Assembly (NCBI RefSeq): GCF_000011325.1
Contig: NC_003450.3
Location: 30,001 to 62,000, forward strand
DNA length: 32,000 nucleotides
Direction: 5' to 3'
Source of the DNA: Corynebacterium glutamicum ATCC 13032
Lineage (GTDB): Bacteria > Actinomycetota > Actinomycetes > Mycobacteriales > Mycobacteriaceae
Shown here one piece after another: positions 4,982 to 24,011 of this stretch. The position numbers were made by a program, and so were the translations under genes. The first letter of the stretch is position 1. Each line of letters starts with the position of its first letter. The notes under the pieces are model-generated. The model was not told the DNA's origin and did no database searches. It saw only the letters and a program-made list of their open reading frames with translations.

Positions 4982-5671
4982 TTGAAAGACCAGTTGAAGA
5001 TTGTTGGATTCATGAATGTAGAACGGATTTATCGACAAGCGCCAGCAAGTACGTTGATCTCTTTAGCCATCATCGCTGTGTACGCAGTGACGGCCATTCA
5101 ATCGAGATCAGTGACAGACAACCTGGGTTCAACCAGTATCGGTGACGCGTGGATTCTGTACGCACCGCTGATGGATGATGGTGGCTTTGGTCCACTGCGT
5201 GCCATCGGAGGAATGTTCCTGCACATTGGCCCCGGGCACATGCTGTTGAACCTTGTGTTGTTGTGGTTGCTGGGAAGAGAAATTGAACGAGACTTCGGTT
5301 CTGCGCTTTTCACTGCGATGTACTTTGTGGGCGGTATTGGTGCGTCTGCAGCTGTCATCTGGATGGATCCCTATTCACCGACAGCAGGTGCTTCCGGCGC
5401 CATTTACGCCATGATGGCTATTTTGGTGGGGCTTTTTGTGTTAAGAAGCGCGGATATCCGAGCACCCTTGATCCTTATCGCCATCAACATCGCCTATACC
5501 TTGATGTCCACCAATGTTTCTCTGTGGGGACACCTTGGAGGTTTGATCACTGGAGCTTTAATTACTTGGCCAATGGTTAAAGCGAAAACTCAAAGAACAC
5601 GGTGGATTATCGTGCTCATTGGTTTTGCTGTAGTTGTGGCTGCTGTCATTCTAGGAATTGACCGGGTGTAG
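4982..5671 (+). CDS. Rhomboid-family intramembrane serine protease
   Basis: HxxxN motif (HMLLN), catalytic GxSG (GASGAIYA), TM6 His motif (HLGGLITG), multiple TM segments. The track start is TTG at 4982; an alternative ATG is at 5012. Confidence 0.85.
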   Translation: MKDQLKIVGFMNVERIYRQAPASTLISLAIIAVYAVTAIQSRSVTDNLGSTSIGDAWILYAPLMDDGGFGPLRAIGGMFLHIGPGHMLLNLVLLWLLGREIERDFGSALFTAMYFVGGIGASAAVIWMDPYSPTAGASGAIYAMMAILVGLFVLRSADIRAPLILIAINIAYTLMSTNVSLWGHLGGLITGALITWPMVKAKTQRTRWIIVLIGFAVVVAAVILGIDRV

Positions 5672-5688
5672 ACACATTCCGCCCATTG

Positions 5689-5733
5689 CCCTCACCGGGG
5701 TCAAAAATTTGACATCCGGTGAGGGTATTTCTG
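5689..5733 (+). terminator. Probable terminator hairpin downstream of the rhomboid gene
   Basis: 10-bp perfect stem ccctcaccgg (5689-5698) / ccggtgaggg (5716-5725), followed by a T-rich tail tatttctgt. Confidence 0.5.
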
Positions 5734-5761
5734 TATCTATCGCTTGACAGGAATTGAACTA

Positions 5762-5779
5762 AATTACAATTTTGTAATT
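5762..5779. repeat. AT-rich 7-4-7 palindrome AATTACA-ATTT-TGTAATT, copy 1 of 2; function unknown
   Basis: Read directly. It is followed by CACCGA. The second copy at 5953-5970 shares 15 of 16 nt across TTTTGTAATT(C/T)ACCGA. Confidence 0.6.
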
Positions 5780-5806
5780 CACCGAGTGAATTAACCCCGT
5801 GTTAGC

Positions 5807-6242
5807 TTTTCCACAGAATGTGTAATTCCAAGTTTCCTCTTTGTACACATAACAACATTGAGCTTCCCACACGCCTGTGCACAGTTCTGTGGATGAATGT
5901 GGATAACTCACAACAGTTCAAGTTATCCACAAAAGTTATCCACACTGTGGATAGTTACATTTTTGTAATTTACCGATACATTGAGCCAATTTATTATTCG
6001 AACACGTAGATGGCTTGGAAACACTGACGTCAGCACCTGTACTATTCGAACAAATCACAACCCGGTGGAAACTGTTCACAGAGTTATCCACAGGCTGTGA
6101 AATGGTAGGTATACCTGACAGTGTCAGTCTAAAACTGTTCCATTCACAACTTGTTCCACAGCCTGTGGATAACTTGAGGAAAAGCGATTAACACACACTT
6201 GTCCACAGATCGATGTGTATAACTCCGAACCCCTGTGGATAA
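5807..6242. promoter_or_regulatory. DnaA-box cluster: 6 perfect TTATCCACA boxes plus 5 one-mismatch boxes, on both strands
   Basis: Perfect boxes: 5898-5906(-), 5923-5931(+), 5936-5944(+), 6084-6092(+), 6164-6172(-), 6234-6242(-). One-mismatch boxes: 5807-5815, 5888-5896, 5946-5954, 6199-6207 (TTGTCCACA), 6214-6222. A weaker box lies at 6152-6160. All six perfect boxes share the extended 12-mer (A/G)AGTTATCCACA. Confidence 0.85.
5953..5970. repeat. AT-rich 7-4-7 palindrome AGTTACA-TTTT-TGTAATT, copy 2 of 2; function unknown
   Basis: Read directly. It is followed by TACCGA and sits immediately after DnaA boxes 5936-5954. Confidence 0.6.
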
Positions 6243-6243
6243 C

Positions 6244-7242
6244 TCAGGGGGTAGGGATGCGCGCACAGTCAGCTTGGTACTGCATCGGTGTGCAACCATG
6301 AGTGGCGGTGAAAGCACGGTTGAAAGCAGGTAAGTGTGAGTATCCGAGGTTCCGTGCGACTACCCCCGGGCTTAGCCCTTTGCTTAATTGAATGCGCGCC
6401 AAAGTCATTCTTCGCAGAAGTCCCCAGCGCTGCACCGCAATGCCAGTCATGTGTGCAAACTCTTCCGCAATTCCGCCGCGAATAGCAGAAACATTAGTTT
6501 CTCGGGAGACTGCAAGATCAACTGCCAAAGAAATTAATTCATCATTGTGATTTTTGGTTGGCGTGTTTTTCGTGGAGCATTTTGGAAAAGGTAGGGAGAA
6601 GCACTGATCCGGGGCCGCTTTGTGCGGGTGAAAAGGAGTGTAGGCAGAAATCGTGCATTGCAAAAGCTGCTGAATAGAGCAATCAAACTGAATGATGTCC
6701 ACATGTTGGGCACTGATTGAATGGGAATCTGGAACTTGGTAGCCCAACGGCAACATGAGTCCGCCCGCAGGAGTGTGAAGATCCAGGCGCATTCCAGCTG
6801 GAAGAATTAACCCTTCACCTTGATGAACAGTGAGTTCTCTATCAGCTACTCGAACGGTGGATGTTCCTTGAAAAGCCCACACCATGATGTGAGATCCATT
6901 GATCCGAGACCATGTTTCATTTGCTGGAATCTCTAAAGATGCGAGTTGGGGCAGTGGTGGATCAAGATGTTGCGGTTCTGGAAGTGTAAGAATCTGATTG
7001 GGTGAGATCCCCATATGAGTGCGAAATGCTTTGGAGAGGTTGCTTGCTCCAGAAAAACCAACGTGATGAGCTGCCCATTCTGCGCTGTCGCCATCGGAAA
7101 GATAGGCAACTGCAAGGCTTAACCGGGTGCGTGTTCTCCAGGTGCTGATGTTTAGCCCTGTTTCATCGAGAAAACGGCGCTGTGAAAAGAAACCAGACGA
7201 TTCGGGTTGCAAAGCTTTCTGTGCAGTTCCGTCCCCGGACAC
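6244..7242 (-). CDS. AraC-family transcriptional regulator with an atypical N-terminal extra half HTH domain; start uncertain
   Basis: C-terminal full AraC DNA-binding domain (…GLSPGVVARNLGYSHLPAFNRAFTATHGCTPMQY). Central cupin-like segment (HIMVWAFQGTSTVRVADRELTVHQGEGLILPAG). The N-terminal 80 aa look like the second half of another AraC HTH domain (VGFSGASNLSKAFRTHMGISPNQ). The 5' end overlaps the divergent permease ORF by 61 nt. Confidence 0.75.
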   Translation of the reverse strand: MSGDGTAQKALQPESSGFFSQRRFLDETGLNISTWRTRTRLSLAVAYLSDGDSAEWAAHHVGFSGASNLSKAFRTHMGISPNQILTLPEPQHLDPPLPQLASLEIPANETWSRINGSHIMVWAFQGTSTVRVADRELTVHQGEGLILPAGMRLDLHTPAGGLMLPLGYQVPDSHSISAQHVDIIQFDCSIQQLLQCTISAYTPFHPHKAAPDQCFSLPFPKCSTKNTPTKNHNDELISLAVDLAVSRETNVSAIRGGIAEEFAHMTGIAVQRWGLLRRMTLARIQLSKGLSPGVVARNLGYSHLPAFNRAFTATHGCTPMQYQADCARIPTP

Positions 7243-8201
7243 TGATGGTAGTGCTCATCGCGGTTACGTTGGTGGTGATTCTTATTCATTTGAGTCTGAC
7301 TGTTGGTTCCATCACTGCATCGCAGGCGTGGTCGGCGGTCGTAGGAGTGGGTGATGCTTCTGATATTCGTTCAGTGCAATCACGGCGCTTGCCTCGAGTG
7401 CTGACAGCGGTAGGAGTGGGCGCTGCGCTGGGATTATCTGGCGCTTGTTTCAGTCCGTGTCACGTAACAGTGCTGGGCTCACCAGACATCATTGGATTTA
7501 CCACGGGAGCTGCCACAGCTGCGGCGATCAGCATTATTTTCTTTGATGCAGGTGTGGTCTTAACCGGAGTGGCAGCCATTCTTGGTGGACTTGCGACCGC
7601 AGTTTTTGTCTATCTCATGGCCAGACAAAATAGCAATACCGGCGGGTTGCGTCTGGTGTTGGTTGGTATCGGAACAGGTGCATTTTTGGGTGCTGCTCGT
7701 GATTTCTTCATGGTGCGCGCAGATATTACGGGTGCTTCGACGGTACAGCTGTGGTCTGCCGGTTCGTTGAGCGGGCGCGACTGGAATCATGCCCTGTTGG
7801 TGTTGATTTCGTGTGCAGTGATTGTGCCAGCACTGTGCATTATTGTCCGCCGTTTACGCCTGATGGAAATGGGTGATGATGCAGCTGGGGCACTTGGAAT
7901 TTCAGTGGAGAGAACACGGTTGATAGCCATTTTGTTGGCTGTGCTGCTGGTGGGGATCGCCACCGCAGCTGCAGGTCCCATCGCTTTTATTGCACTGGCA
8001 GCACCTCAGATTGCCCGGGCTCTGGCCCGGGAGGATGGAGTGCTGGTGGCTGCGTCGATAAGCATTGGCTCTGGGCTGTTAGTTGCGGCGGATTGCCTAG
8101 AGCAACACGTTGATACTGAGCTGCACACGCCCGTTGGCCTGGTGACCAGTTTGCTGGGCGGGGTGTATTTGATGTGGCTTTTGAGCCGAAAGGAGGCATA
8201 A
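7182..8201 (+). CDS. Iron-siderophore-type ABC transporter permease (FecCD family)
   Basis: 339-aa polytopic ORF with typical FecCD organisation. GTG start at 7182; alternative ATG at 7245. Stop directly abuts the next start at 8202. Confidence 0.8.
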   Translation: MKRNQTIRVAKLSVQFRPRTLMVVLIAVTLVVILIHLSLTVGSITASQAWSAVVGVGDASDIRSVQSRRLPRVLTAVGVGAALGLSGACFSPCHVTVLGSPDIIGFTTGAATAAAISIIFFDAGVVLTGVAAILGGLATAVFVYLMARQNSNTGGLRLVLVGIGTGAFLGAARDFFMVRADITGASTVQLWSAGSLSGRDWNHALLVLISCAVIVPALCIIVRRLRLMEMGDDAAGALGISVERTRLIAILLAVLLVGIATAAAGPIAFIALAAPQIARALAREDGVLVAASISIGSGLLVAADCLEQHVDTELHTPVGLVTSLLGGVYLMWLLSRKEA

Positions 8202-8981
8202 ATGCTGCAAGCGCATGATCTCACGCTGAGTTACGGCGGGCGAAATATTGTAGAAGGGCTCAGTCTGGACCTTCCGGAAAGAGGCCTCAGCATCATCATT
8301 GGCCCCAACGGATGCGGGAAATCAACCGTTTTGAAAGCGTTGGGCAGACTGCTGAAACCACAATTGGGGAAGATCACGCTAGGTGGGCGAGATATTTCCA
8401 GCATGGGCACCAAGCATGTGGCGAAACACATCGGGGTGCTTCCGCAACCCCCATATGCGCCCGATGGGGTGAGCGTCACGGAGCTGGTCAGCCGCGGGCG
8501 GTATCCGCACCAACATCTGCTGTCGCAATGGTCAAAAGACGATGAAGCCATTGTGGCGCGCTCGCTGGCGGAAGTCGGCATGCACACCCATGCTGAGCAT
8601 TTAGTGTCGGAACTTTCAGGCGGCCAGCGCCAACGGGCGTGGATCGCCATGGCGCTCGCTCAGGAAACAGACATTTTGCTTCTCGACGAGCCCACCACGT
8701 TCCTCGACGTAGCCCACCAAATATCCGTCCTCGATTTATGCTCCGACCTGCACCAACGTGGTCGCACCCTGGCCATTGTTCTACACGATCTGAACATGGC
8801 TGCACGGTATGCCACCCACATCATCGCCATGCGGGACGGCACCATCATCGACCAAGGAAAACCCGAAGAAATACTCACTAAAGCGCTGCTCAAAGAAGTT
8901 TTTGACCTCGACGCACTCATCCTCAAAGACCCCAACAACGGCCGACCACTCATCGTGCCCACAGACAGGAGAAACTCATGA
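8202..8981 (+). CDS. Iron-siderophore-type ABC transporter ATP-binding protein (FepC/FecE-like)
   Basis: Walker A GPNGCGKST, signature LSGGQRQR, Walker B LLLDEPTTFLD, H-loop VLHD. ATGA overlap with the next gene. Confidence 0.85.
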   Translation: MLQAHDLTLSYGGRNIVEGLSLDLPERGLSIIIGPNGCGKSTVLKALGRLLKPQLGKITLGGRDISSMGTKHVAKHIGVLPQPPYAPDGVSVTELVSRGRYPHQHLLSQWSKDDEAIVARSLAEVGMHTHAEHLVSELSGGQRQRAWIAMALAQETDILLLDEPTTFLDVAHQISVLDLCSDLHQRGRTLAIVLHDLNMAARYATHIIAMRDGTIIDQGKPEEILTKALLKEVFDLDALILKDPNNGRPLIVPTDRRNS

Positions 8982-9802
8982 AAGAAACCGACAACCTACT
9001 GCGCGAAAACTCCCACGACCGCGACATCTCTGAAATCGTCGCCACCATCACTGCCCTTGACCACCCATCACCCTCACTTCTGCGATTCACAGCTTTTGTT
9101 CCAGGATCAGCAAACAACCCAGTGTGGGCAGAAGCCAACGTGGCAATCAGGCTTTACCTCAGCGAAGAATTCGACGACGCCACCCGCGTCTACACCGTCC
9201 GATCCTTTGATGCCGCAACTGAAAGCATCGTGGTGGATGTGGTTCAACACCACCACGAAAGCCCCATGATGCGCTGGTCAGACACCGTAAAAATCAACGA
9301 CACCCTCGTGCTCACCGGACCCCGCCCACACTTTGTCATCCCCGAAGGCGAACAAGCAGCACTCTTCCTTGATGACACCGCCATCCCCGCTCTCGCCGCT
9401 ATTTTGGATCAATGGCCAACAGATCTTCGTGGCAAAGGATGGGTTGTCACTGACGATCCCGCAGCCTTCGATGAACTACCCAGCATCGACGGACTGGAAC
9501 TGAACCTGCTCGCGCCGGGATCAGATCCAACTGTTCAGCCACTTGCCCAACAGGCATATGACCTGGAAAACCCAGAAACTTACGTGGTGTGGGCAGCCGG
9601 CGAGCGAGATGAAATAAAATCCATCCGCAGGCACTTCCGCAAGCAGGTGGGATTGGAAAAAGATGCAGTGGCCGTGTTTGGGTACTGGAAATACAACACC
9701 ACCAACACTCAGATCGATGCAGTCCGCAAAGAAAACTACATGAAGATGCTCTCTGAAGGGCTACAGCTGGAAAACTTCGACGACCTCTCATTGGAGATTT
9801 AA
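8978..9802 (+). CDS. Siderophore-interacting protein / ferric-siderophore flavoreductase (ViuB/SIP family)
   Basis: FAD-binding motif RVYTVRSFD. C-terminal NAD(P)H-type region YVVWAAGERDEIKSIRRHF. Operon context with the FecCD/FepC-type genes. Confidence 0.8.
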   Translation: MKETDNLLRENSHDRDISEIVATITALDHPSPSLLRFTAFVPGSANNPVWAEANVAIRLYLSEEFDDATRVYTVRSFDAATESIVVDVVQHHHESPMMRWSDTVKINDTLVLTGPRPHFVIPEGEQAALFLDDTAIPALAAILDQWPTDLRGKGWVVTDDPAAFDELPSIDGLELNLLAPGSDPTVQPLAQQAYDLENPETYVVWAAGERDEIKSIRRHFRKQVGLEKDAVAVFGYWKYNTTNTQIDAVRKENYMKMLSEGLQLENFDDLSLEI

Positions 9803-9920: not shown

Positions 9921-10098
9921 AACCAGACTGGCGTGCCCAAATGTCGTGTCTTCAGTCCACATGGGCATGCCTGTCTGGTTTCTCGGCTCTCAAACCGAAC
10001 AGGAGTGCCCACGGCTGGCAAAAAGTTCAGTTCTTGGGCACGCTAGTCTGGTTTTACCTTTTTGAGTGCCCCGAACTGCCAAACGAGAGTGCCCATGA
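9921..10098. repeat. Array of six copies of a ~20-bp motif (consensus about AACCAGAC(A/T)GG(C/A)GTGCCCA) arranged as two inverted pairs plus two partial direct copies
   Basis: A 9921-9940(+), B 9961-9980(-), D 9993-10012(+), C 10034-10053(-). A and C are reverse complements with 1 mismatch in 20. Partial copies carry the GAGTGCCC core at about 10064-10071 and 10087-10094. Confidence 0.7.
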
Positions 10099-10130
10099 GG
10101 GGCTAAATCTGGATCCGCCCGCACAAAACA

Positions 10131-10179
10131 ACTGCCGCAGCACAACGAATCAACGCTGTGCTGCGGCAGTCACTTTTTT
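10131..10179. terminator. Bidirectional rho-independent terminator (crgA on the minus strand; plus-strand read-through from the repeat region)
   Basis: Perfect 14-bp stem actgccgcagcaca / tgtgctgcggcagt with a 12-nt loop. T6 run at 10174-10179 on plus; tgtttt on the minus side. Confidence 0.8.
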
Positions 10180-10185
10180 GAAGGA

Positions 10186-10458
10186 TTAACGCCAACCCAT
10201 GGTCATGAGTAGGCCGATGATCATCAGACCGAAGCCGATGCCATAGTTCCATGCACCAAGATCAGCCATGAATGGGATCTGTGGGCCCACGAGGTAGTTA
10301 ATGATCAACCAGGCTAGGCCGACGATCATGAAGGCAAACATGATGACCTTGTACCACATTGGGGTTCCGGCGGAATTGATCTTAACCGGGGTGCGGTTTG
10401 CGCTTGGGTTGCTTGAAACCGGTGCGGTCTCGTTTTTAGTTACTCTTGCCTTTGGCAT
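10186..10458 (-). CDS. crgA: Cell division protein CrgA
   Basis: 90-aa ORF with two TM helices, a WYK motif before TM1 and C-terminal GWR. Conserved position downstream of pknB, as in other Actinobacteria. Confidence 0.85.
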
Positions 10459-12513: not shown

Positions 12514-13919
12514 TGCGCTCCTCCTACATCCAATAGGCCATTTACGGCGTCGATTAAATCATCAGCCGGTGCATTAGTCTCAACTGGAACGCTAGCACTC
12601 GTCCTAGGTGTAGAGGTAGGGATTTGAGGCACAGTTCGGCTACTTGTTGGAGCTTCCGTGGTTGGTTCCTCGGATGTGCTCTCTTCACTTGTCGTCGGAC
12701 GGTGTGAAGTTGTTTCAGGTTCGGTGAATGTTGACCGTGTTGGAGGCGTTGGCGGTACCCACTGAGAGGTGGTTTCCTCCACGGTTGGGGTGTATGTTTC
12801 CGTAATGGTTTCAGGTGTGGTGGTTTCTTCCGGAGTGTCGTTGAACAAAATTCCGGTGGTGCCCGCATAGATCACCGCGCCAATAATCACGGCAAGCAAA
12901 GCTGCGATGAACAGACCAATGCCAATGCCGGAACCGCGTTTCGGGGCCGCTTCTTGGGTGATTGTTGCAGGCCGGGCCACCCTGCCCAGCATCGCCGTTG
13001 ATTCGCTTGGCGACGGCGCCTCCGCCTGCGCCATCATCGCGCTCGTGCGCGGTTGAGGCGGGCGCTTGCCAAGGCGCACAGCAGAAACAGCTAGCGCCAT
13101 TTCATTTCCATCAGGGAAACGGCGACCCGGATCCTTGCGCAACGCAATGCCAATCAACTCGCGAGTCTGTGCCGAAATGCTGGTGGGCATCTGCGGCGGA
13201 GCTTGGTTGATGTGCGCGATCGCCACAGACACCGAAGAATCTCCAGTGAACGGGCGGCGGCCAGCCATCATCTCATAGCCGACCACACCGAGAGAATAAA
13301 TATCAGAAGCCGCGGTGACTTCCTTGCCCTGGGCTTGCTCAGGTGAAACATATTGAGCAGTACCCACCACCATGCCGGTGCGGGTCAAAGGCACAGCAGC
13401 GGCAGCCTTAGCGATACCAAAGTCCGTGATCTTCACAATGCCATTGGCTGTGATCAGCATGTTGCCCGGCTTGATATCGCGGTGCACCATGTCCATCCGG
13501 TGAATCACCGACAAACCATGTGCCGCCTGTTCCATCACATCAAGAGCCAGGTCTTCCGGCAGTCTGCCTTCGCGCTCTAGAAGATCCGCAAGCGATTCAC
13601 CGCGGACAAATTCCATGACGATGAAGCAGAAAGTATGCCCAGCAGGGTCTGGAACCTCACGGTAGTCATAGGTGGCCACCACGTGTTCAGAATCGATATT
13701 CTCAGCCGCTTGCGCTTCATTGCGGAAACGGTTCAAGAACTCCTGGTTGTCGGAAAATTCCGGGCGCAGTACCTTGATGGCTACTTCGCGATCATTGACC
13801 ACATCATCTGCGAGCCATACGGTGGACATGCCACCGTGTCCGATGATCCACTGCAGACGATAATCAGCGCCGATGAGTTCTTGGAGTCGATCTTTTCCAG
13901 TGATGTCTTCTTGACTCAT
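12510..13919 (-). CDS. pknA: Ser/Thr protein kinase PknA
   Basis: Kinase motifs GHGGMSTV, VAIK, HRDIKPGN, DFGIA, SPEQ. TM helix and a Thr/Pro/Glu-rich C-terminal region. Confidence 0.95.
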   Translation of the reverse strand: MSQEDITGKDRLQELIGADYRLQWIIGHGGMSTVWLADDVVNDREVAIKVLRPEFSDNQEFLNRFRNEAQAAENIDSEHVVATYDYREVPDPAGHTFCFIVMEFVRGESLADLLEREGRLPEDLALDVMEQAAHGLSVIHRMDMVHRDIKPGNMLITANGIVKITDFGIAKAAAAVPLTRTGMVVGTAQYVSPEQAQGKEVTAASDIYSLGVVGYEMMAGRRPFTGDSSVSVAIAHINQAPPQMPTSISAQTRELIGIALRKDPGRRFPDGNEMALAVSAVRLGKRPPQPRTSAMMAQAEAPSPSESTAMLGRVARPATITQEAAPKRGSGIGIGLFIAALLAVIIGAVIYAGTTGILFNDTPEETTTPETITETYTPTVEETTSQWVPPTPPTRSTFTEPETTSHRPTTSEESTSEEPTTEAPTSSRTVPQIPTSTPRTSASVPVETNAPADDLIDAVNGLLDVGGAQ

Positions 13920-18501: not shown

Positions 18502-19398
18502 CTAGGGACTAACAATACGAACTTCGATATTGGAATGACCCACCGTAATGACATCACCATCAGCCAACAACCAATTATCCACAGGAGTGTCATTCACCGT
18601 GGTGCCATTAGTCGACTTCAAATCAACCAAAATGGCATCCCGGCCATCCCACGTGATCTCCACATGCTGACGAGACACACCAGTATCCGGCAAACGAAGA
18701 TCCGCATCATTACTACGACCAATGATGTTCGAACCCTCCCGAACCAAATAAGTCCGGCTCGAACCATCCTGCAGCAGCAAAGTCACCGTAGGGCCCGCGG
18801 GCTTCATCGCAGCCTGGCGATTCGCATCAACCTGAGACTGCGGCACACCCTGAACCAAAGGGCGATCCGCTGATTGCGCCGGCAAAAACTCCGTACCAGT
18901 GTAAGGGGAACTGTCAGACACGTTCTTAGACTCACTTTCTGCGACAGGCAGGATGCCGTCGCCTTCCAAAGGCAGATAACCGCTACTTAACTCCGGATCC
19001 GGATCCTTCTCCGAAACCGACTTCAACTGGCCCGTGTGCAACGAAGAATCCTCTTCAATCAACACAATCACCGGCCCAACCAACGTCCAGCCACTGTTCC
19101 TGCAGAACCTCATCATCTGATCACCAAAACGAGCCGGCTGATCAGGAAAACGATCGACAAGATTACTAAAATCGTTCGGGCTCACCGAAACCTTAAAAAC
19201 ATTCGGCGCCTCAACATAGCCAAACTCAGTATGAACCACATTGTCCTCAGCCTCTTGCTTCAAAAGCTCCTCAAGCTCAGCCGGAACAACGCGACCACGG
19301 AAAACAAACGCCAACGCATTATCAAGGCCGCGTTGCATAGAACTGTCCAGCTTGGCCAAACTGTTCATAGCATTAGCTATCCGATTCGAAGTAGCCAT
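18502..19398 (-). CDS. fhaA: FHA-domain protein FhaA
   Basis: C-terminal FHA domain (IIGRSNDADLRL…VSRQHVEI…LVDLKSTNGTTVN). The track ORF starts at TTG 19422, but AAGGAGG lies 7 nt upstream of ATG 19398 (MATSNRIAN), so 19398 is preferred. Confidence 0.9.
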   Translation of the reverse strand: MATSNRIANAMNSLAKLDSSMQRGLDNALAFVFRGRVVPAELEELLKQEAEDNVVHTEFGYVEAPNVFKVSVSPNDFSNLVDRFPDQPARFGDQMMRFCRNSGWTLVGPVIVLIEEDSSLHTGQLKSVSEKDPDPELSSGYLPLEGDGILPVAESESKNVSDSSPYTGTEFLPAQSADRPLVQGVPQSQVDANRQAAMKPAGPTVTLLLQDGSSRTYLVREGSNIIGRSNDADLRLPDTGVSRQHVEITWDGRDAILVDLKSTNGTTVNDTPVDNWLLADGDVITVGHSNIEVRIVSP

Positions 19399-19704
19399 AA
19401 CTTTGCGACCTCCTTTTCTCAATAAGTTGGGTGTTCCATAAGTGTCTTCTCCTAGAAAACGCCTAAGGGCATGGCTTTGTCCCTCCCTGTGACTGAAATT
19501 CCATTTAGAAAAACCTTCACACGGTCTAAACCAAAGCGCACGATAGCGTCATTATAGAGGTGAACGGCGCCAGAGTTATAGGCCAAACCACCGGGATGCA
19601 TAAATTTACAACTTTGTTGCCATTCAGGAAACCGCTATTTAGCTGCCGATTTGGTATTCAACGCCAAGTGCGTGCTATCTTTAACAAGTCGCAAAAGACA
19701 CCCT

Positions 19705-21622: not shown

Positions 21623-23095
21623 CTAGCCGGCGTAAGGATCCCGGATACCGATGTACTGCACGGAGGTGTACTCCTCGATTCCTTCGAGACCACCTTCGCG
21701 GCCCATTCCGGATTGTTTTACGCCACCAAAAGGTGCAGCAGCGTTAGAGATGACACCGGAATTGACGCCCACTAGGCCGAACTCGAGACCATCGGAGACG
21801 CGGAAAATACGTGAGGTGTCCTGGGTGAACACATAGGAGGCCAGTCCGTATTCGGTGGAGTTGGCTAGACGCAGGGCTTCTTCCTCGGTTTGGAAGGTGA
21901 CGATCGGTGCGACGGGACCGAAGATCTCTTCGTTCAGGATAGCCGCATCTGTTGAAACTCCCGTGAGCACCGTTGGTTCGTAGAAGTAGCCTGCACCTGT
22001 GCCGGCCTTGCCGCCGGTGAGGACGGTGGCACCTTCGGCGACGGCGGCGTCGACAAGCGATGCAACGCTGTCTCGTGCTTTTTCCTCAACCAGGGGGCCC
22101 ACGGTGACGCCTTCGTCGAGGCCGTTGCCTAGGACTTGCTCTTCAAGGCGGGCAGCGAAGCGACGGCCGAATTCATCGGCGACGGATTCGTGGACTAAGA
22201 AACGGTTGGCTGCGGTGCAAGCTTCGCCGATGTTGCGCATTTTGGCACCCATGGCACCTTCGATCGCGAGATCTAGGTCGGCGTCCTCGAAGACAATGAA
22301 AGGTGCGTTGCCACCAAGTTCCATGGAGGTGCGCAGAACTTTATCGGCAGCCTTTTTGAGCAGCTGCTGGCCAACTGGGGTGGAGCCGGTGAAGGAGACT
22401 TTACGAAGGCGATCGTCTTCCATAATCGGGTTGGAAATCGCAGAGGCGGAAGCACCGGAGACCACATTGAGGACACCTGCTGGAAGACCGGCATCAAGCA
22501 TGGTCTGAGCAAAATACTGGGAGGTCAGCGGGGTAAGTCGAGCTGGCTTGAGCACCATGACACAACCTGCAGCGATCGCAGGTGCGACCTTGCGGGTAGC
22601 CATTGCTAGTGGGAAGTTCCATGGGGTGATCAGGAGGCACGGGCCAACTGGCTTGAGGGCGGTCAGCATCCGCAAGTTGCCTTCTGGTGTGGTTCCGTAA
22701 CGGCCATACAGACGAACTGCTTCCTCAGAGAACCAGCGCAGGAATTCGTTGCCGTAGGTGACTTCGCCGCGAGCTTCAGCCAAAGGCTTGCCCATTTCCA
22801 AGGTCATGAGGGTGGCGAACTCTTCTGCACGTTCTGCTACGAGCTCAAAACCGCGGCGTAAAATATTAGAACGCTCGCGCGCTGGCATCCTAGCCCACTC
22901 GGCCTGAACAGCGCATGCAGCATCAAGAGCAGCCAGTGCATCCTCGGAAGTAGCAGACGCGAGCGTTGCGATTGTTTCACCCGTCGCTGGGTTTTCCACA
23001 TCGAAAGTACCGCCGTCGGATGCTTCCACCCAGGAATCACCAATCAGTAGACCCGTGGGGACTTTGGCAAGTAGTTCGGAGACATTAATAGTCAT
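21623..23095 (-). CDS. gabD: NAD(P)+-dependent succinate-semialdehyde dehydrogenase (aldehyde dehydrogenase superfamily)
   Basis: 490-aa ORF. ALDH motifs FTGSTPVG, MELGGNAP and catalytic Cys in GEACTAANR. Overall GabD/Sad-like sequence. Confidence 0.85.
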   Translation of the reverse strand: MTINVSELLAKVPTGLLIGDSWVEASDGGTFDVENPATGETIATLASATSEDALAALDAACAVQAEWARMPARERSNILRRGFELVAERAEEFATLMTLEMGKPLAEARGEVTYGNEFLRWFSEEAVRLYGRYGTTPEGNLRMLTALKPVGPCLLITPWNFPLAMATRKVAPAIAAGCVMVLKPARLTPLTSQYFAQTMLDAGLPAGVLNVVSGASASAISNPIMEDDRLRKVSFTGSTPVGQQLLKKAADKVLRTSMELGGNAPFIVFEDADLDLAIEGAMGAKMRNIGEACTAANRFLVHESVADEFGRRFAARLEEQVLGNGLDEGVTVGPLVEEKARDSVASLVDAAVAEGATVLTGGKAGTGAGYFYEPTVLTGVSTDAAILNEEIFGPVAPIVTFQTEEEALRLANSTEYGLASYVFTQDTSRIFRVSDGLEFGLVGVNSGVISNAAAPFGGVKQSGMGREGGLEGIEEYTSVQYIGIRDPYAG

Positions 23096-23111
23096 GATGC
23101 GTTATTTTCCT

Positions 23112-23294
23112 TCACTTTTCGTATCCAGCAGCGTTGAGTTGCTGGACATCGGCACCGACTCGGACAAAGTTGGCGCCGGCGTCGAGGTAGTCCTGTGCTT
23201 AGTTCAAATCAAAGGCATTGACACCCACAGGTTTACCAGCATCACGGAAAGTTTGGATGGATTTTTACTCCGGCCACAACGTCTGGCTGGAAGC
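23112..23294 (-). pseudogene. C-terminal remnant of an HpcH/HpaI-family aldolase with two in-frame stops
   Basis: My minus-strand translation reads LWPE*KSIQTFRDAGKPVGVNAFDLN*AQDYLDAGANFVRVGADVQQLNAAGYEK*. The block GK..G……AQ..L..GANFV.VG.D is the conserved C-terminus of HpaI-type aldolases. It ends 16 nt upstream of the gabD start. Confidence 0.65.
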
Positions 23295-23300
23295 TCAGCC

Positions 23301-24011
23301 ACGTGCTTTCTGGTCGTGCGCCACGACGAGCACTACCCAGCTGCGGCAAACCTCATTGCTTTCGATAAGGGATGGTCCACCCTCATCGCCCCTCAGCTGG
23401 AAGATCCAGAGGCGGAGGAGTTCACCGCCGGATTCCTCACCGAATACCAGGACAATCTGATCACTGCGGGCATGGAGCACCAGGCGCTCGCGAGCGGCTT
23501 CCCGGTGGGGCGTCGCTTCAAGTCCGATATTGCTTTACGACGCTGCGATGCGGTGACCACCCACATCGGCCACGAACACTCCGCCGATGGTCACTGGAGG
23601 ATCTACGTATTCGCTGGCCAAGCCACCCCACAAGATTCCGAGTCTGCACTGAACAAGTGGGCGCAGTGGATGGAGGAAAGCGAAGACTCACCACTCAACC
23701 GCTTCACCCCAGAAGCCGGCGACCGCAACGCAGTCTTCGATATCAAGGCTACCTACCAGCAGCATTACCACTCCTTCGACCTGTTCGATGCGCCAGAGGT
23801 CTTCTTCCCACGAGTTGGACCATACAAGCTGCAAAACCTCGAAAACGTTTGGACCGCACTGGATTCCCAAGACATCTTTGAGTCCCGTGGCATCAGTCGC
23901 GATGGCGCAATTGTTGTCGTTCGCCCAGACCAGTACGTCGCAGCAGTCCTCCCACTCGAAGACACCGCAGCACTGGCTGAGTTCTTCAATGGCAATCTGC
24001 TTGAGCCATAA
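23301..24011 (+). pseudogene. C-terminal fragment of a FAD-dependent phenol 2-monooxygenase-type hydroxylase; N-terminal FAD domain missing
   Basis: The sequence …LIAFDKGWS…GFPVGRRFKS…DGHWRIYVFAG…IVVVRPDQYVA… matches the linker plus thioredoxin-like C-terminal domain of PheA/TfdB-type hydroxylases. The first ~80 codons of the track ORF (23055-) are antisense to gabD and the aldolase remnant. Confidence 0.6.

Follow-up and report, generated by a model that had tools for sequence, protein, structure and literature searches.

A structured cluster of DnaA boxes downstream of the rhomboid gene of Corynebacterium glutamicum, a likely non-origin regulatory locus enlarged from an ancient actinobacterial site

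A 32,000-nucleotide stretch of the chromosome of Corynebacterium glutamicum ATCC 13032 (NC_003450.3, positions 30,001 to 62,000; hereafter the window, to which all coordinates refer unless another locus is named) contains a dense cluster of DnaA boxes in the gap between a rhomboid gene and an AraC-family gene. The two genes converge on this gap, which spans 5672-6243 (572 bp), and the gene order around it is ppiA, rhomboid, the cluster, AraC, FecCD, ABC ATPase, siderophore-interacting protein (SIP), crgA, pknB, pknA, pbpA, rodA, ppp, fhaB, fhaA and tRNA-Leu. Judging from gene order and identity to CP005959.1, where a coordinate minus 29,979 gives the window coordinate, the cluster occupies chromosomal positions ~35.8-36.2 kb, ~36 kb to the right of dnaA; the AraC protein is identical in C. 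glutamicum MB001 (CP005959.1) and K051. The features of the gap and its two flanking genes are listed below. Invariance across species refers to a footprint alignment of the gap from C. glutamicum, C. suranareeae, C. crudilactis and C. callunae, the rhomboid proteins of which are 63-83% identical.

4982-5671, plus strand: rhomboid gene, left neighbour of the cluster
5689-5725, plus strand: inverted repeat, hairpin CCCTCACCGG...CCGGTGAGGG with a T-rich tail
5761-5782: palindrome P1, AAATTACAATTTTGTAATTC, containing TTACA-N4-TGTAA at 5764-5777; AAATTACAA is invariant in the four species
5807-5827: convergent pair, TTTTCCACA (plus, one mismatch), 3 bp, weak inverted box TGTGTAATT; the TCCACA and TGTG columns are invariant
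5875-5906: weak plus-strand box CTGTGCACA (5875), then tandem minus-strand boxes TCATCCACA (5888) and perfect TTATCCACA (5898)
5923-5972: core, with box 1 at 5923-5931 (plus), 4 nt, box 2 at 5936-5944 (plus), 1 nt, box 3 at 5946-5954 (minus), then palindrome P2; invariant across the four species
5955-5968: palindrome P2, TTACATTTTTGTAA, directly after box 3
5992-6004 and 6040-6052, plus strand: two copies of the direct repeat TAYTATTCGAACA, between the core and element B, kept in three of the four close species
6065-6106: element B, with a perfect box at 6084-6092 (plus), 3 bp, weak inverted box TGTGAAATG (6096-6104)
6152-6172: element C, with weak plus-strand box TGTTCCACA (6152), 3 bp, perfect minus-strand box at 6164-6172
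6199-6242: right-hand triplet, TTGTCCACA (6199, plus), 6 bp, TTATACACA (6214, minus), 11 bp, perfect TTATCCACA (6234, minus)
6244-7242, minus strand: AraC-family gene, right neighbour, 332 aa, with its stop codon at 6244-6246

Using TTATCCACA (with zero or one mismatch) as the box motif, we recovered every box that a preliminary description of this DNA had named. There are six perfect copies of TTATCCACA, at 5898(-), 5923(+), 5936(+), 6084(+), 6164(-) and 6234(-), and five one-mismatch boxes, namely TTTTCCACA at 5807, TCATCCACA at 5888, CTATCCACA at 5946, TTGTCCACA at 6199 and TTATACACA at 6214; together these 11 boxes span 436 bp. The other sequence claims of that description also hold, including the head-to-head pairs at 5936-5954 and 6156-6168, a shared 12-mer form (a 5' RAG flank on all six clustered perfect boxes), a convergent gap of about 570 bp, in which we find no convincing promoter, and a setting with neither dnaA nor dnaN, both of which are absent from the window. 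The proposed excess over chance is equally clear, with seven perfect boxes in the window against 0.15 expected and none of 100 shuffles reaching seven. The seventh perfect box, at 18575-18583 (+), lies outside the cluster and lacks the RAG flank. It falls inside an fhaA-like open reading frame (ORF; 18502-19422, minus strand) at the end of the pknB operon. The number of consensus boxes in the cluster, six, matches that in the annotated oriC of C. variabile.

The hairpin at 5689-5725, the stem of which is kept with base changes in C. suranareeae, is likely the terminator of the rhomboid gene and the left edge of the element; at the right edge, the final box stops 1 bp short of the AraC stop codon. 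Elements B and C together form a 21-nt inverted repeat (6082-6102 and 6154-6174, 95% complementary), and element B is a ~40-bp block in which 6065-6093 is invariant in the four species. P1 and P2 are the sole two matches to TTACA-N4-TGTAA in the window, where 0.02 would be expected, and fall on the two 30-mers of the region that are richest in AT; 30-mers with at least 75% AT make up 0.11% of those in the window, and two of them flank the left sub-cluster. The direct repeat TAYTATTCGAACA is not conserved in C. crudilactis. It contains TCGAAC, which we take to be one half of the actinobacterial LexA box, and the second half is missing from both copies. The MtrA motif of C. glutamicum, RTAACA (PMC6265350), resembles the ATTACA of the palindrome by eye only.

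Several trivial or unrelated explanations of the cluster were examined and discarded. Chance or a dispersed repeat is ruled out by how few boxes occur in the rest of the window and across ~900 kb of related loci, a mobile-element origin by the lack of similar DNA among 72,556 plasmids, and an RNA gene by the lack of any Rfam family, the only matches being sub-threshold microRNA hairpins that are due to the inverted boxes. A small protein is likewise ruled out, given that the ORFs of the gap (63 aa at most) merely translate the boxes. Promoter and terminator counts in the gap are not above those in shuffled sequence, no parS-like site was found near the cluster, and the consensus for IHF, WATCAANNNNTTR, does not occur in 5740-6260. 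GC skew across the window tracks gene strand and is uninformative on origin function.

We then compared the locus across genomes by aligning rhomboid homologs and examining 80 genomic loci together with those of C. suranareeae, C. crudilactis and C. pacaense. The box cluster begins ~50-350 bp past the rhomboid stop codon in 15 of the 17 Corynebacterium loci (the window counted), and across these 17 loci box density is 8.9/kb in the 800 bp after the rhomboid gene against 0.19/kb elsewhere, a 47-fold difference. Among the four aligned species, the boxes lie at offsets 0, 81, 91, 116, 129, 139, 277, 357, 392 and 427, with order, strand and spacing equal within 1 bp. Invariant columns account for 84 of 99 box positions (85%) against 134 of 385 non-box positions (35%; Fisher p = 1e-19), so that the boxes are under selection and the spacer sequence drifts. 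The conserved stretches outside the strong boxes are weak inverted partners (such as TGTGAAATG following the box at 6084 and TCCACAG preceding that at 6164) and the two copies of the palindrome.

Individual genomes depart from this pattern in different ways. The two loci that lack the cluster are those of Corynebacterium sp. ACRPH (L024, 10570-10752), where the ends of the rhomboid gene and crgA lie tens of bp apart with no boxes between them, and of C. pacaense (L086), where the DNA after the rhomboid gene is rearranged and crgA is not close by. All six cluster boxes of C. kozikiae (L008, 10676-10918) are the variant TTTTCCACA, with no TTATCCACA, which suggests either a lineage-wide shift of the preferred box or a concerted change inside the cluster. 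The cluster of C. pollutisoli (L006, 10655-10961) seems to be inverted relative to the rhomboid gene and crgA, with the B/C pair ahead of the core, and includes three tandem TTATCCCCA boxes at 10-bp steps.

The same comparison reverses an idea of the preliminary description, which had placed the cluster inside an insertion between ppiA and crgA. The features on the crgA side are as follows.

6244-9802: block foreign to the element, with an AraC regulator, a FecCD permease, an ABC ATPase and a siderophore-interacting protein
10186-10458, minus strand: crgA, cut off from the cluster by the 3.9-kb insertion in C. glutamicum

The cluster stands directly between the rhomboid gene and crgA in C. crudilactis, C. 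pollutisoli, C. pygosceleis, C. kozikiae and C. riegelii, and remains next to the rhomboid gene where insertions move crgA 2.5-6 kb off. The block of AraC and siderophore-uptake genes separates it from crgA in C. glutamicum and C. suranareeae and is absent in C. crudilactis, and several other species carry unrelated DNA in the same place. Because the cluster stays beside the rhomboid gene and five species have crgA directly beyond it, the cluster is ancestral in the ppiA/rhomboid-crgA gap, the AraC-FecCD-ABC-SIP block having entered on its right-hand side. In BLAST, the homology of C. crudilactis to C. glutamicum stops at 6244, and the crgA-side remainder has no match detectable by BLAST in C. 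crudilactis, for which reason the MAFFT-aligned GGGGTAGGGAT after the last box can be taken only tentatively as a mark of the insertion junction. The siderophore block itself appears decayed in C. glutamicum, with an AraC protein of 332 aa and one FecCD permease; in that of C. suranareeae (L084, 7228-12657) the AraC protein has 471 aa, and a periplasmic binding protein is encoded along with two FecCD permeases.

Beyond presence and position, the boxes obey a strict geometry. For 115 strong boxes in 14 Corynebacterium clusters, we searched for partner boxes with at most three mismatches at a gap of 0-8 bp and derived the expectation from shuffled flanks.

Convergent partners: 74 of 115 observed, 16.6 expected
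Tandem partners: 67 of 115 observed, 18 expected
Divergent partners: 20 of 115 observed, 11 expected

The convergent gaps concentrate at 1, 3 and 6 bp. The spacing from element B to element C differs between lineages (80, 71, 70, 70, 60, 49, 60 and 70 bp), but by full turns of the helix alone, the period that fits best being 10.4 bp (R = 0.97; none of 20,000 simulations was as extreme); the lineages are partly related, so that there are effectively four classes of B-to-C spacing, every one of them in phase. Distances from the core to element B (138, 125, 117, 126, 116, 139, 117 and 126 bp) fit a period of ~10.9 bp (P = 0.004). Phasing that persists despite spacer drift is what would be expected of a looped or wrapped multi-protein complex, and would not be required of a passive sink.

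The site extends far beyond Corynebacterium. At least one box lies within 130 bp 3' of crgA in 27 of 31 crgA-bearing loci from other genera; the boxes found there total 49, of which 29 are perfect, the genomes having a G+C content of 65-72% and a background of 0.067 boxes/kb. The binomial probability is 7.5e-52, a value that overstates independence since the loci are phylogenetically related. Groups of boxes occupy the ppiA/rhomboid-crgA gap in Corynebacterium, Nocardia, Rhodococcus, Mycobacterium, Amycolatopsis, Micrococcales and Streptomyces. When the sequences are stacked on the second tandem box, a composite core of ~50 bp emerges that is common to Corynebacterium, Nocardia, Rhodococcus, Prescottella, a metagenome-assembled genome of Mycobacteriaceae, Amycolatopsis and Actinosynnema. 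It consists of TTATCCACA, N4, TTATCCACA, N1 and an inverted box (of the form TGTGGATAG in Corynebacterium and TGGGGATGA in the outgroups), directly adjoined by a palindrome of the pattern (A)TTACA(C), N2-4, (G)TGTAAT. Micrococcales retain between one and four boxes there. In Streptomyces, two loci have four boxes, the sole ones in 10 kb, in the same convergent rhomboid-crgA gap; this crgA-side cluster is devoid of the TTACA-N4-TGTAA palindrome and of the exact core spacing.

For the mycobacterial comparison, we used a locus of the Mycobacterium tuberculosis complex (L087, with gene sizes equal to those of H37Rv) and a Mycolicibacterium locus. Over the core, the M. tuberculosis gap (aagTTATCCACAgacgCTATCAACAgTGGGGATGAATCACAtgcgTGTGATTg) and C. 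glutamicum 5920-5973 (aagTTATCCACAaaagTTATCCACAcTGTGGATAGTTACAttttTGTAATTt) can be aligned base for base, and the two sites share synteny, from the ppiA-side gene to the 3' end of crgA, as well as box order and spacing; no Rv0010c-like gene (bPH_6 family) is present in the window or in any Corynebacterium locus. From this alignment, we identify the core at 5923-5972 as the ortholog of the DnaA site between Rv0010c and Rv0011c of M. tuberculosis. The GAATC target of IS6110 falls at H37Rv 13624-13628, and ~65 bp separate the palindrome from the start of Rv0010c, both as published; the mutational hotspot palindrome of M. tuberculosis is therefore the ortholog of 5955-5968.

The preliminary description knew of no function for such a cluster at this position. 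The mycobacterial ortholog, however, binds DnaA and has a mutant phenotype in cell length and isoniazid response (PMC7738170). Hicks et al. 2020 mapped DnaA binding at Rv0010c-Rv0011c (Rv0011c being crgA) in M. tuberculosis by sequencing DNA that was affinity-purified in vitro (IDAP-seq), and chromatin immunoprecipitation sequencing in M. smegmatis recovered homologs of the same five DnaA sites, with an electrophoretic mobility shift assay confirming the Rv0010c-Rv0011c fragment (PMC7738170). The site is one of four non-oriC DnaA sites of M. tuberculosis, oriC being separate, and clinical single-nucleotide polymorphisms (SNPs) together with 22 independent IS6110 insertions converge on the palindrome 65 bp upstream of Rv0010c (PMC7738170). 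Engineered SNPs at the site yielded longer cells with higher isoniazid tolerance, as dnaA mutations do; the site mutants behaved like hypomorphic dnaA alleles, the initiation rate was unchanged, and expression of Rv0010c and Rv0011c was unaltered in dnaA mutants (PMC7738170). The authors weigh titration against a role like that of the DnaA-reactivating sequences (DARS) of Escherichia coli (PMC7738170).

The junction orthologous to 5954/5955 (GAATC) is the site of the 22 independent IS6110 insertions in M. tuberculosis clinical strains. A C. glutamicum strain from SRR13204272 (L003) carries a 44-bp insertion at 5954/5955, exactly where box 3 meets the palindrome, so that the left half of TTACA-N4-TGTAA is destroyed. 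As far as we know, HigA2 is a toxin-antitoxin protein specific to M. tuberculosis, and on that ground it was discarded as a conserved ligand of the palindrome. HigA2 does bind the same palindrome of M. tuberculosis in vitro (PMC11205783).

Within this deep history, Corynebacterium stands apart. A bPH_6 (Rv0010c-like) membrane-protein gene lies between the rhomboid gene or ppiA and the boxes in Nocardia, Rhodococcus, Mycobacterium and Amycolatopsis, so that in these four genera the boxes are the upstream region of that gene. The comparison of gene order indicates that Corynebacterium lost the Rv0010c-like gene and kept and multiplied the boxes. The genus-wide additions are a plus-strand box, element B (agagTTATCCACAggc, found throughout the genus), 116-139 bp from the core, and a converging minus-strand box, element C, 49-80 bp beyond B, each with a weak inverted partner at a 3-bp gap. 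To these the C. glutamicum group added extra pairs at both ends and a second copy of the palindrome. The C. glutamicum and mycobacterial sites thus have in common the syntenic gap, the ~50-bp composite, the proximity to oriC and the non-origin status, and differ in that the M. tuberculosis site comprises one perfect box and degenerate ones in a 155-bp gap upstream of Rv0010c, whereas C. glutamicum has six perfect and five near-perfect boxes over 436 bp, two palindromes, the phased pairs B and C, and no Rv0010c homolog. No description of the cluster in Corynebacterium was found in the literature searched.

Among the marks of extra-oriC DnaA-box clusters as a class are a box density far above chance and a place outside oriC, and the C. 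glutamicum cluster has both; DnaA occupancy, a further mark, is shown for the mycobacterial ortholog. The DnaA-box clusters (DBCs) of Bacillus subtilis are similarly dense groups of consensus boxes near but outside the origin, one of them, gcp-ydiF, at the 3' ends of convergent genes; stable binding hinges on local density and affinity, and deletion of all six leads to early initiation (PMC2533591, PMC3245932). They occupy unrelated loci in a different phylum, and the text consulted describes neither a three-box-palindrome core nor helical phasing for them. The E. coli DARS resemble the C. glutamicum locus in having three packed boxes, one opposed to two in tandem, next to a regulatory region with fixed spacing. 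The E. coli K-12 DARS1 core reads TTATCCACT-attcc-TGTGGATAA-cca-TGTGTATTA, with identical geometry in DARS2 (NC_000913.3); the actinobacterial core, on the opposite strand, reads CTATCCACA-g-TGTGGATAA-cttt-TGTGGATAA and so has gaps of 1 and 4 bp instead of 5 and 3, and the C. glutamicum locus also has many more high-affinity boxes and no IHF or Fis sites. With E. coli datA the locus shares an untranscribed gap downstream of both neighbours and early replication. The spacing and orientation of the datA boxes are optimised, the essential boxes 2, 3 and 7 being co-oriented with an IHF site between them, whereas convergent pairs dominate in C. glutamicum and no IHF consensus is found.

Smulczyk-Krawczyszyn and colleagues reportedly described in 2006 the S. 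coelicolor clusters H69, H24 and D78, of which D78 is said to bind DnaA strongly and to restrain replication. All three are actinobacterial clusters near but outside oriC; D78 lies at a different locus and provides a precedent within the phylum for negative regulation, and the four-box rhomboid-crgA cluster of Streptomyces may be H69. To our knowledge, Actinobacteria are devoid of the Hda, SeqA, YabA and IHF/Fis systems of DnaA control. No other non-origin DnaA site of the phylum appears to be conserved as widely as this locus. Extra-oriC box clusters as a class and the mycobacterial ortholog of this site were already known; as far as we have found, it is new that the site is distributed across Actinobacteria, that its composite core is shared, that the boxes outlasted the loss of the Rv0010c-like gene, and that they are helically phased.

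Taken together, these observations lead us to favour, with reasonable though limited confidence, the reading of the region 5760-6243 as a non-origin, structured DnaA regulatory locus near oriC, enlarged from an ancient actinobacterial site, which probably helps time chromosome replication rather than start it. DnaA, shown to bind the mycobacterial ortholog, almost certainly binds the cluster in C. glutamicum. That the locus acts in trans on the DnaA pool, and not on the neighbouring genes or as an origin, seems to us fairly likely; independence from the neighbours is suggested because the boxes persist without the bPH_6 gene and stay by the rhomboid gene despite insertions. A negative sign, that is, a brake applied after initiation by the box-rich corynebacterial form, is a choice we make only tentatively. 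On such a scheme, DnaA would bind the high-affinity RAG-TTATCCACA boxes, and the bound protein would recruit more DnaA to the conserved weak boxes that are paired with them face to face across 1, 3 or 6 bp. The pairs would lie on one face of the helix, and therefore the ~440 bp would fold into a defined multi-DnaA complex. Lying ~36 kb from oriC, the locus would for that reason be copied within a minute or two of initiation (an estimate from typical fork speeds), and the copied locus would hold or inactivate DnaA in trans once initiation has occurred. It would then be a brake like the B. subtilis DBCs, Streptomyces D78 or E. coli datA, and would tie initiation timing to growth and division.

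Several points count against this interpretation. The strict geometry and the phasing exceed what a simple sink needs, and 11 boxes would hold only a small share of the cellular DnaA unless oligomers spread. The absence of the cluster from two Corynebacterium genomes (L024 and L086) indicates that it is dispensable in some lineages. Mutants of the M. tuberculosis site resemble hypomorphic dnaA mutants, which fits a positive or architectural role at least equally well unless the SNPs strengthen binding, and a literature search found no DnaA-binding or genetic work on this region of C. glutamicum. Of the functions put forward in the preliminary description, the datA- or DBC-type regulatory locus accordingly survives as the best class of explanation, but a plain titration sink is not the sole option within it, given the geometry and the DARS-like topology.

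The last of these points leads to the opposite sign. A DARS-like activator, in which the three-box core would assemble DnaA head-to-head, promote the exchange of ADP-DnaA to ATP-DnaA and stimulate initiation, the extra boxes and the palindrome serving as a regulatory region, is in our judgement unlikely but a serious rival, and the topology speaks for it: the E. coli DARS1 and DARS2 cores (NC_000913.3) run box, 5 bp, inverted box, 3 bp, inverted box, and the actinobacterial core, taken on its other strand, follows the same order with 1 bp and 4 bp in those places, its CACA ends likewise facing each other. Convergent pairs predominate here, unlike the essential datA boxes, which all point in one direction; DARS2 function is typically geometry-dependent; and the SNPs of the M. 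tuberculosis site mimic hypomorphic dnaA, as loss of an activator would. The head-to-head gap of 1 bp instead of 5 bp, however, implies a different protein geometry, the IHF/Fis system is unmatched, with no IHF consensus found, and many perfect high-affinity boxes fit sequestration better than turnover. The mutant phenotypes bear also on an architectural role, in which DnaA bound here would bridge to oriC or other sites through domain I dimers and shape the origin domain or segregation. The locus is always near oriC (13.6 kb away in M. tuberculosis and ~26-36 kb in the C. glutamicum group, if the records start at dnaA), a DnaA domain I dimer, conserved throughout Actinomycetes, is a proposed link between boxes far apart (PMC13270200), phasing implies looping, and the M. 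tuberculosis mutants show altered cell-cycle coordination with an unchanged initiation rate. Local looping would nevertheless suffice for the phasing and no parS-like site was found nearby, and we regard such a role as quite improbable.

Two further readings tie the boxes to the DNA immediately around them. Bound DnaA could act in cis by regulating or insulating the neighbours, either as a roadblock to convergent read-through between the rhomboid gene and crgA/AraC or as the remnant of an Rv0010c-like promoter control; the position of the boxes directly upstream of the bPH_6 gene in Nocardia, Rhodococcus, Mycobacterium and Amycolatopsis, the terminator-like score of the palindromic box pair and T-run at 5934-5956, and the regulation of sda, ywlC and yydA by DnaA from such clusters in B. 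subtilis are all compatible with this. Yet Corynebacterium and Micrococcales without the bPH_6 gene retain the boxes, both C. glutamicum neighbours end at the cluster with no convincing promoter, eleven phased boxes are excessive for a roadblock, and Rv0010c and Rv0011c do not respond in M. tuberculosis dnaA mutants (PMC7738170), so that we think a cis role improbable. The preliminary description had also considered a relic or secondary replication origin, which the box density, equal to or above that of annotated corynebacterial origins, and the two rare AT-rich 30-mers flanking the left sub-cluster might recommend. We nonetheless hold this to be very improbable and set it aside: a scan run without a positive control found no DnaA-trio array beside any box, the AT-rich stretches are the conserved palindromes and not simple unwinding repeats, dnaA and dnaN are missing from the window, the M. 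tuberculosis ortholog is a non-origin site, and in outgroups the element comes down to two or three boxes, fewer than an origin would need.

Elsewhere in the window, the gap between the SIP gene and crgA contains, at 9921-10106, six repeats of ~20 nt in both orientations (AACCAGACNNGCGTGCCCA / TGGGCAYGCNNGTCTGGTT); after them, at 10131-10170, comes a strong hairpin with the look of a terminator of crgA. The gap has no DNA similarity to its crgA-side counterpart in C. crudilactis. The ORF at 23055-24011 (plus strand, 318 aa) matches only the C-terminal dimerisation domain of phenol hydroxylase (PF07976), the FAD-binding domain being absent; its start overlaps the end of an aldehyde dehydrogenase ORF on the opposite strand, and it may be truncated or its start mis-called.

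To return to the favoured reading of a structured regulatory locus near oriC, its conserved part invites a bolder, speculative extension that we consider unlikely. The ~50-bp core could be the actinobacterial counterpart of DARS or datA, a catalytic DNA that changes the nucleotide state or the oligomeric form of DnaA, possibly with the participation of a conserved palindrome-binding protein. If this were true, the core would be the first such element outside Proteobacteria, conserved over hundreds of millions of years from Streptomyces-grade to Corynebacterium-grade organisms and elaborated by Corynebacterium into a phased, looped machine of many pairs, and it would explain the drug-tolerance SNPs of M. 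tuberculosis. Point mutations in the palindrome of M. tuberculosis are under convergent selection in patients and raise isoniazid tolerance, and C. glutamicum carries the most elaborate version of the site in a host that grows fast, is non-pathogenic and is genetically easy. Because the comparative anatomy of the element supplies precise mutations, the role of the Rv0010c-crgA DnaA site becomes directly approachable.

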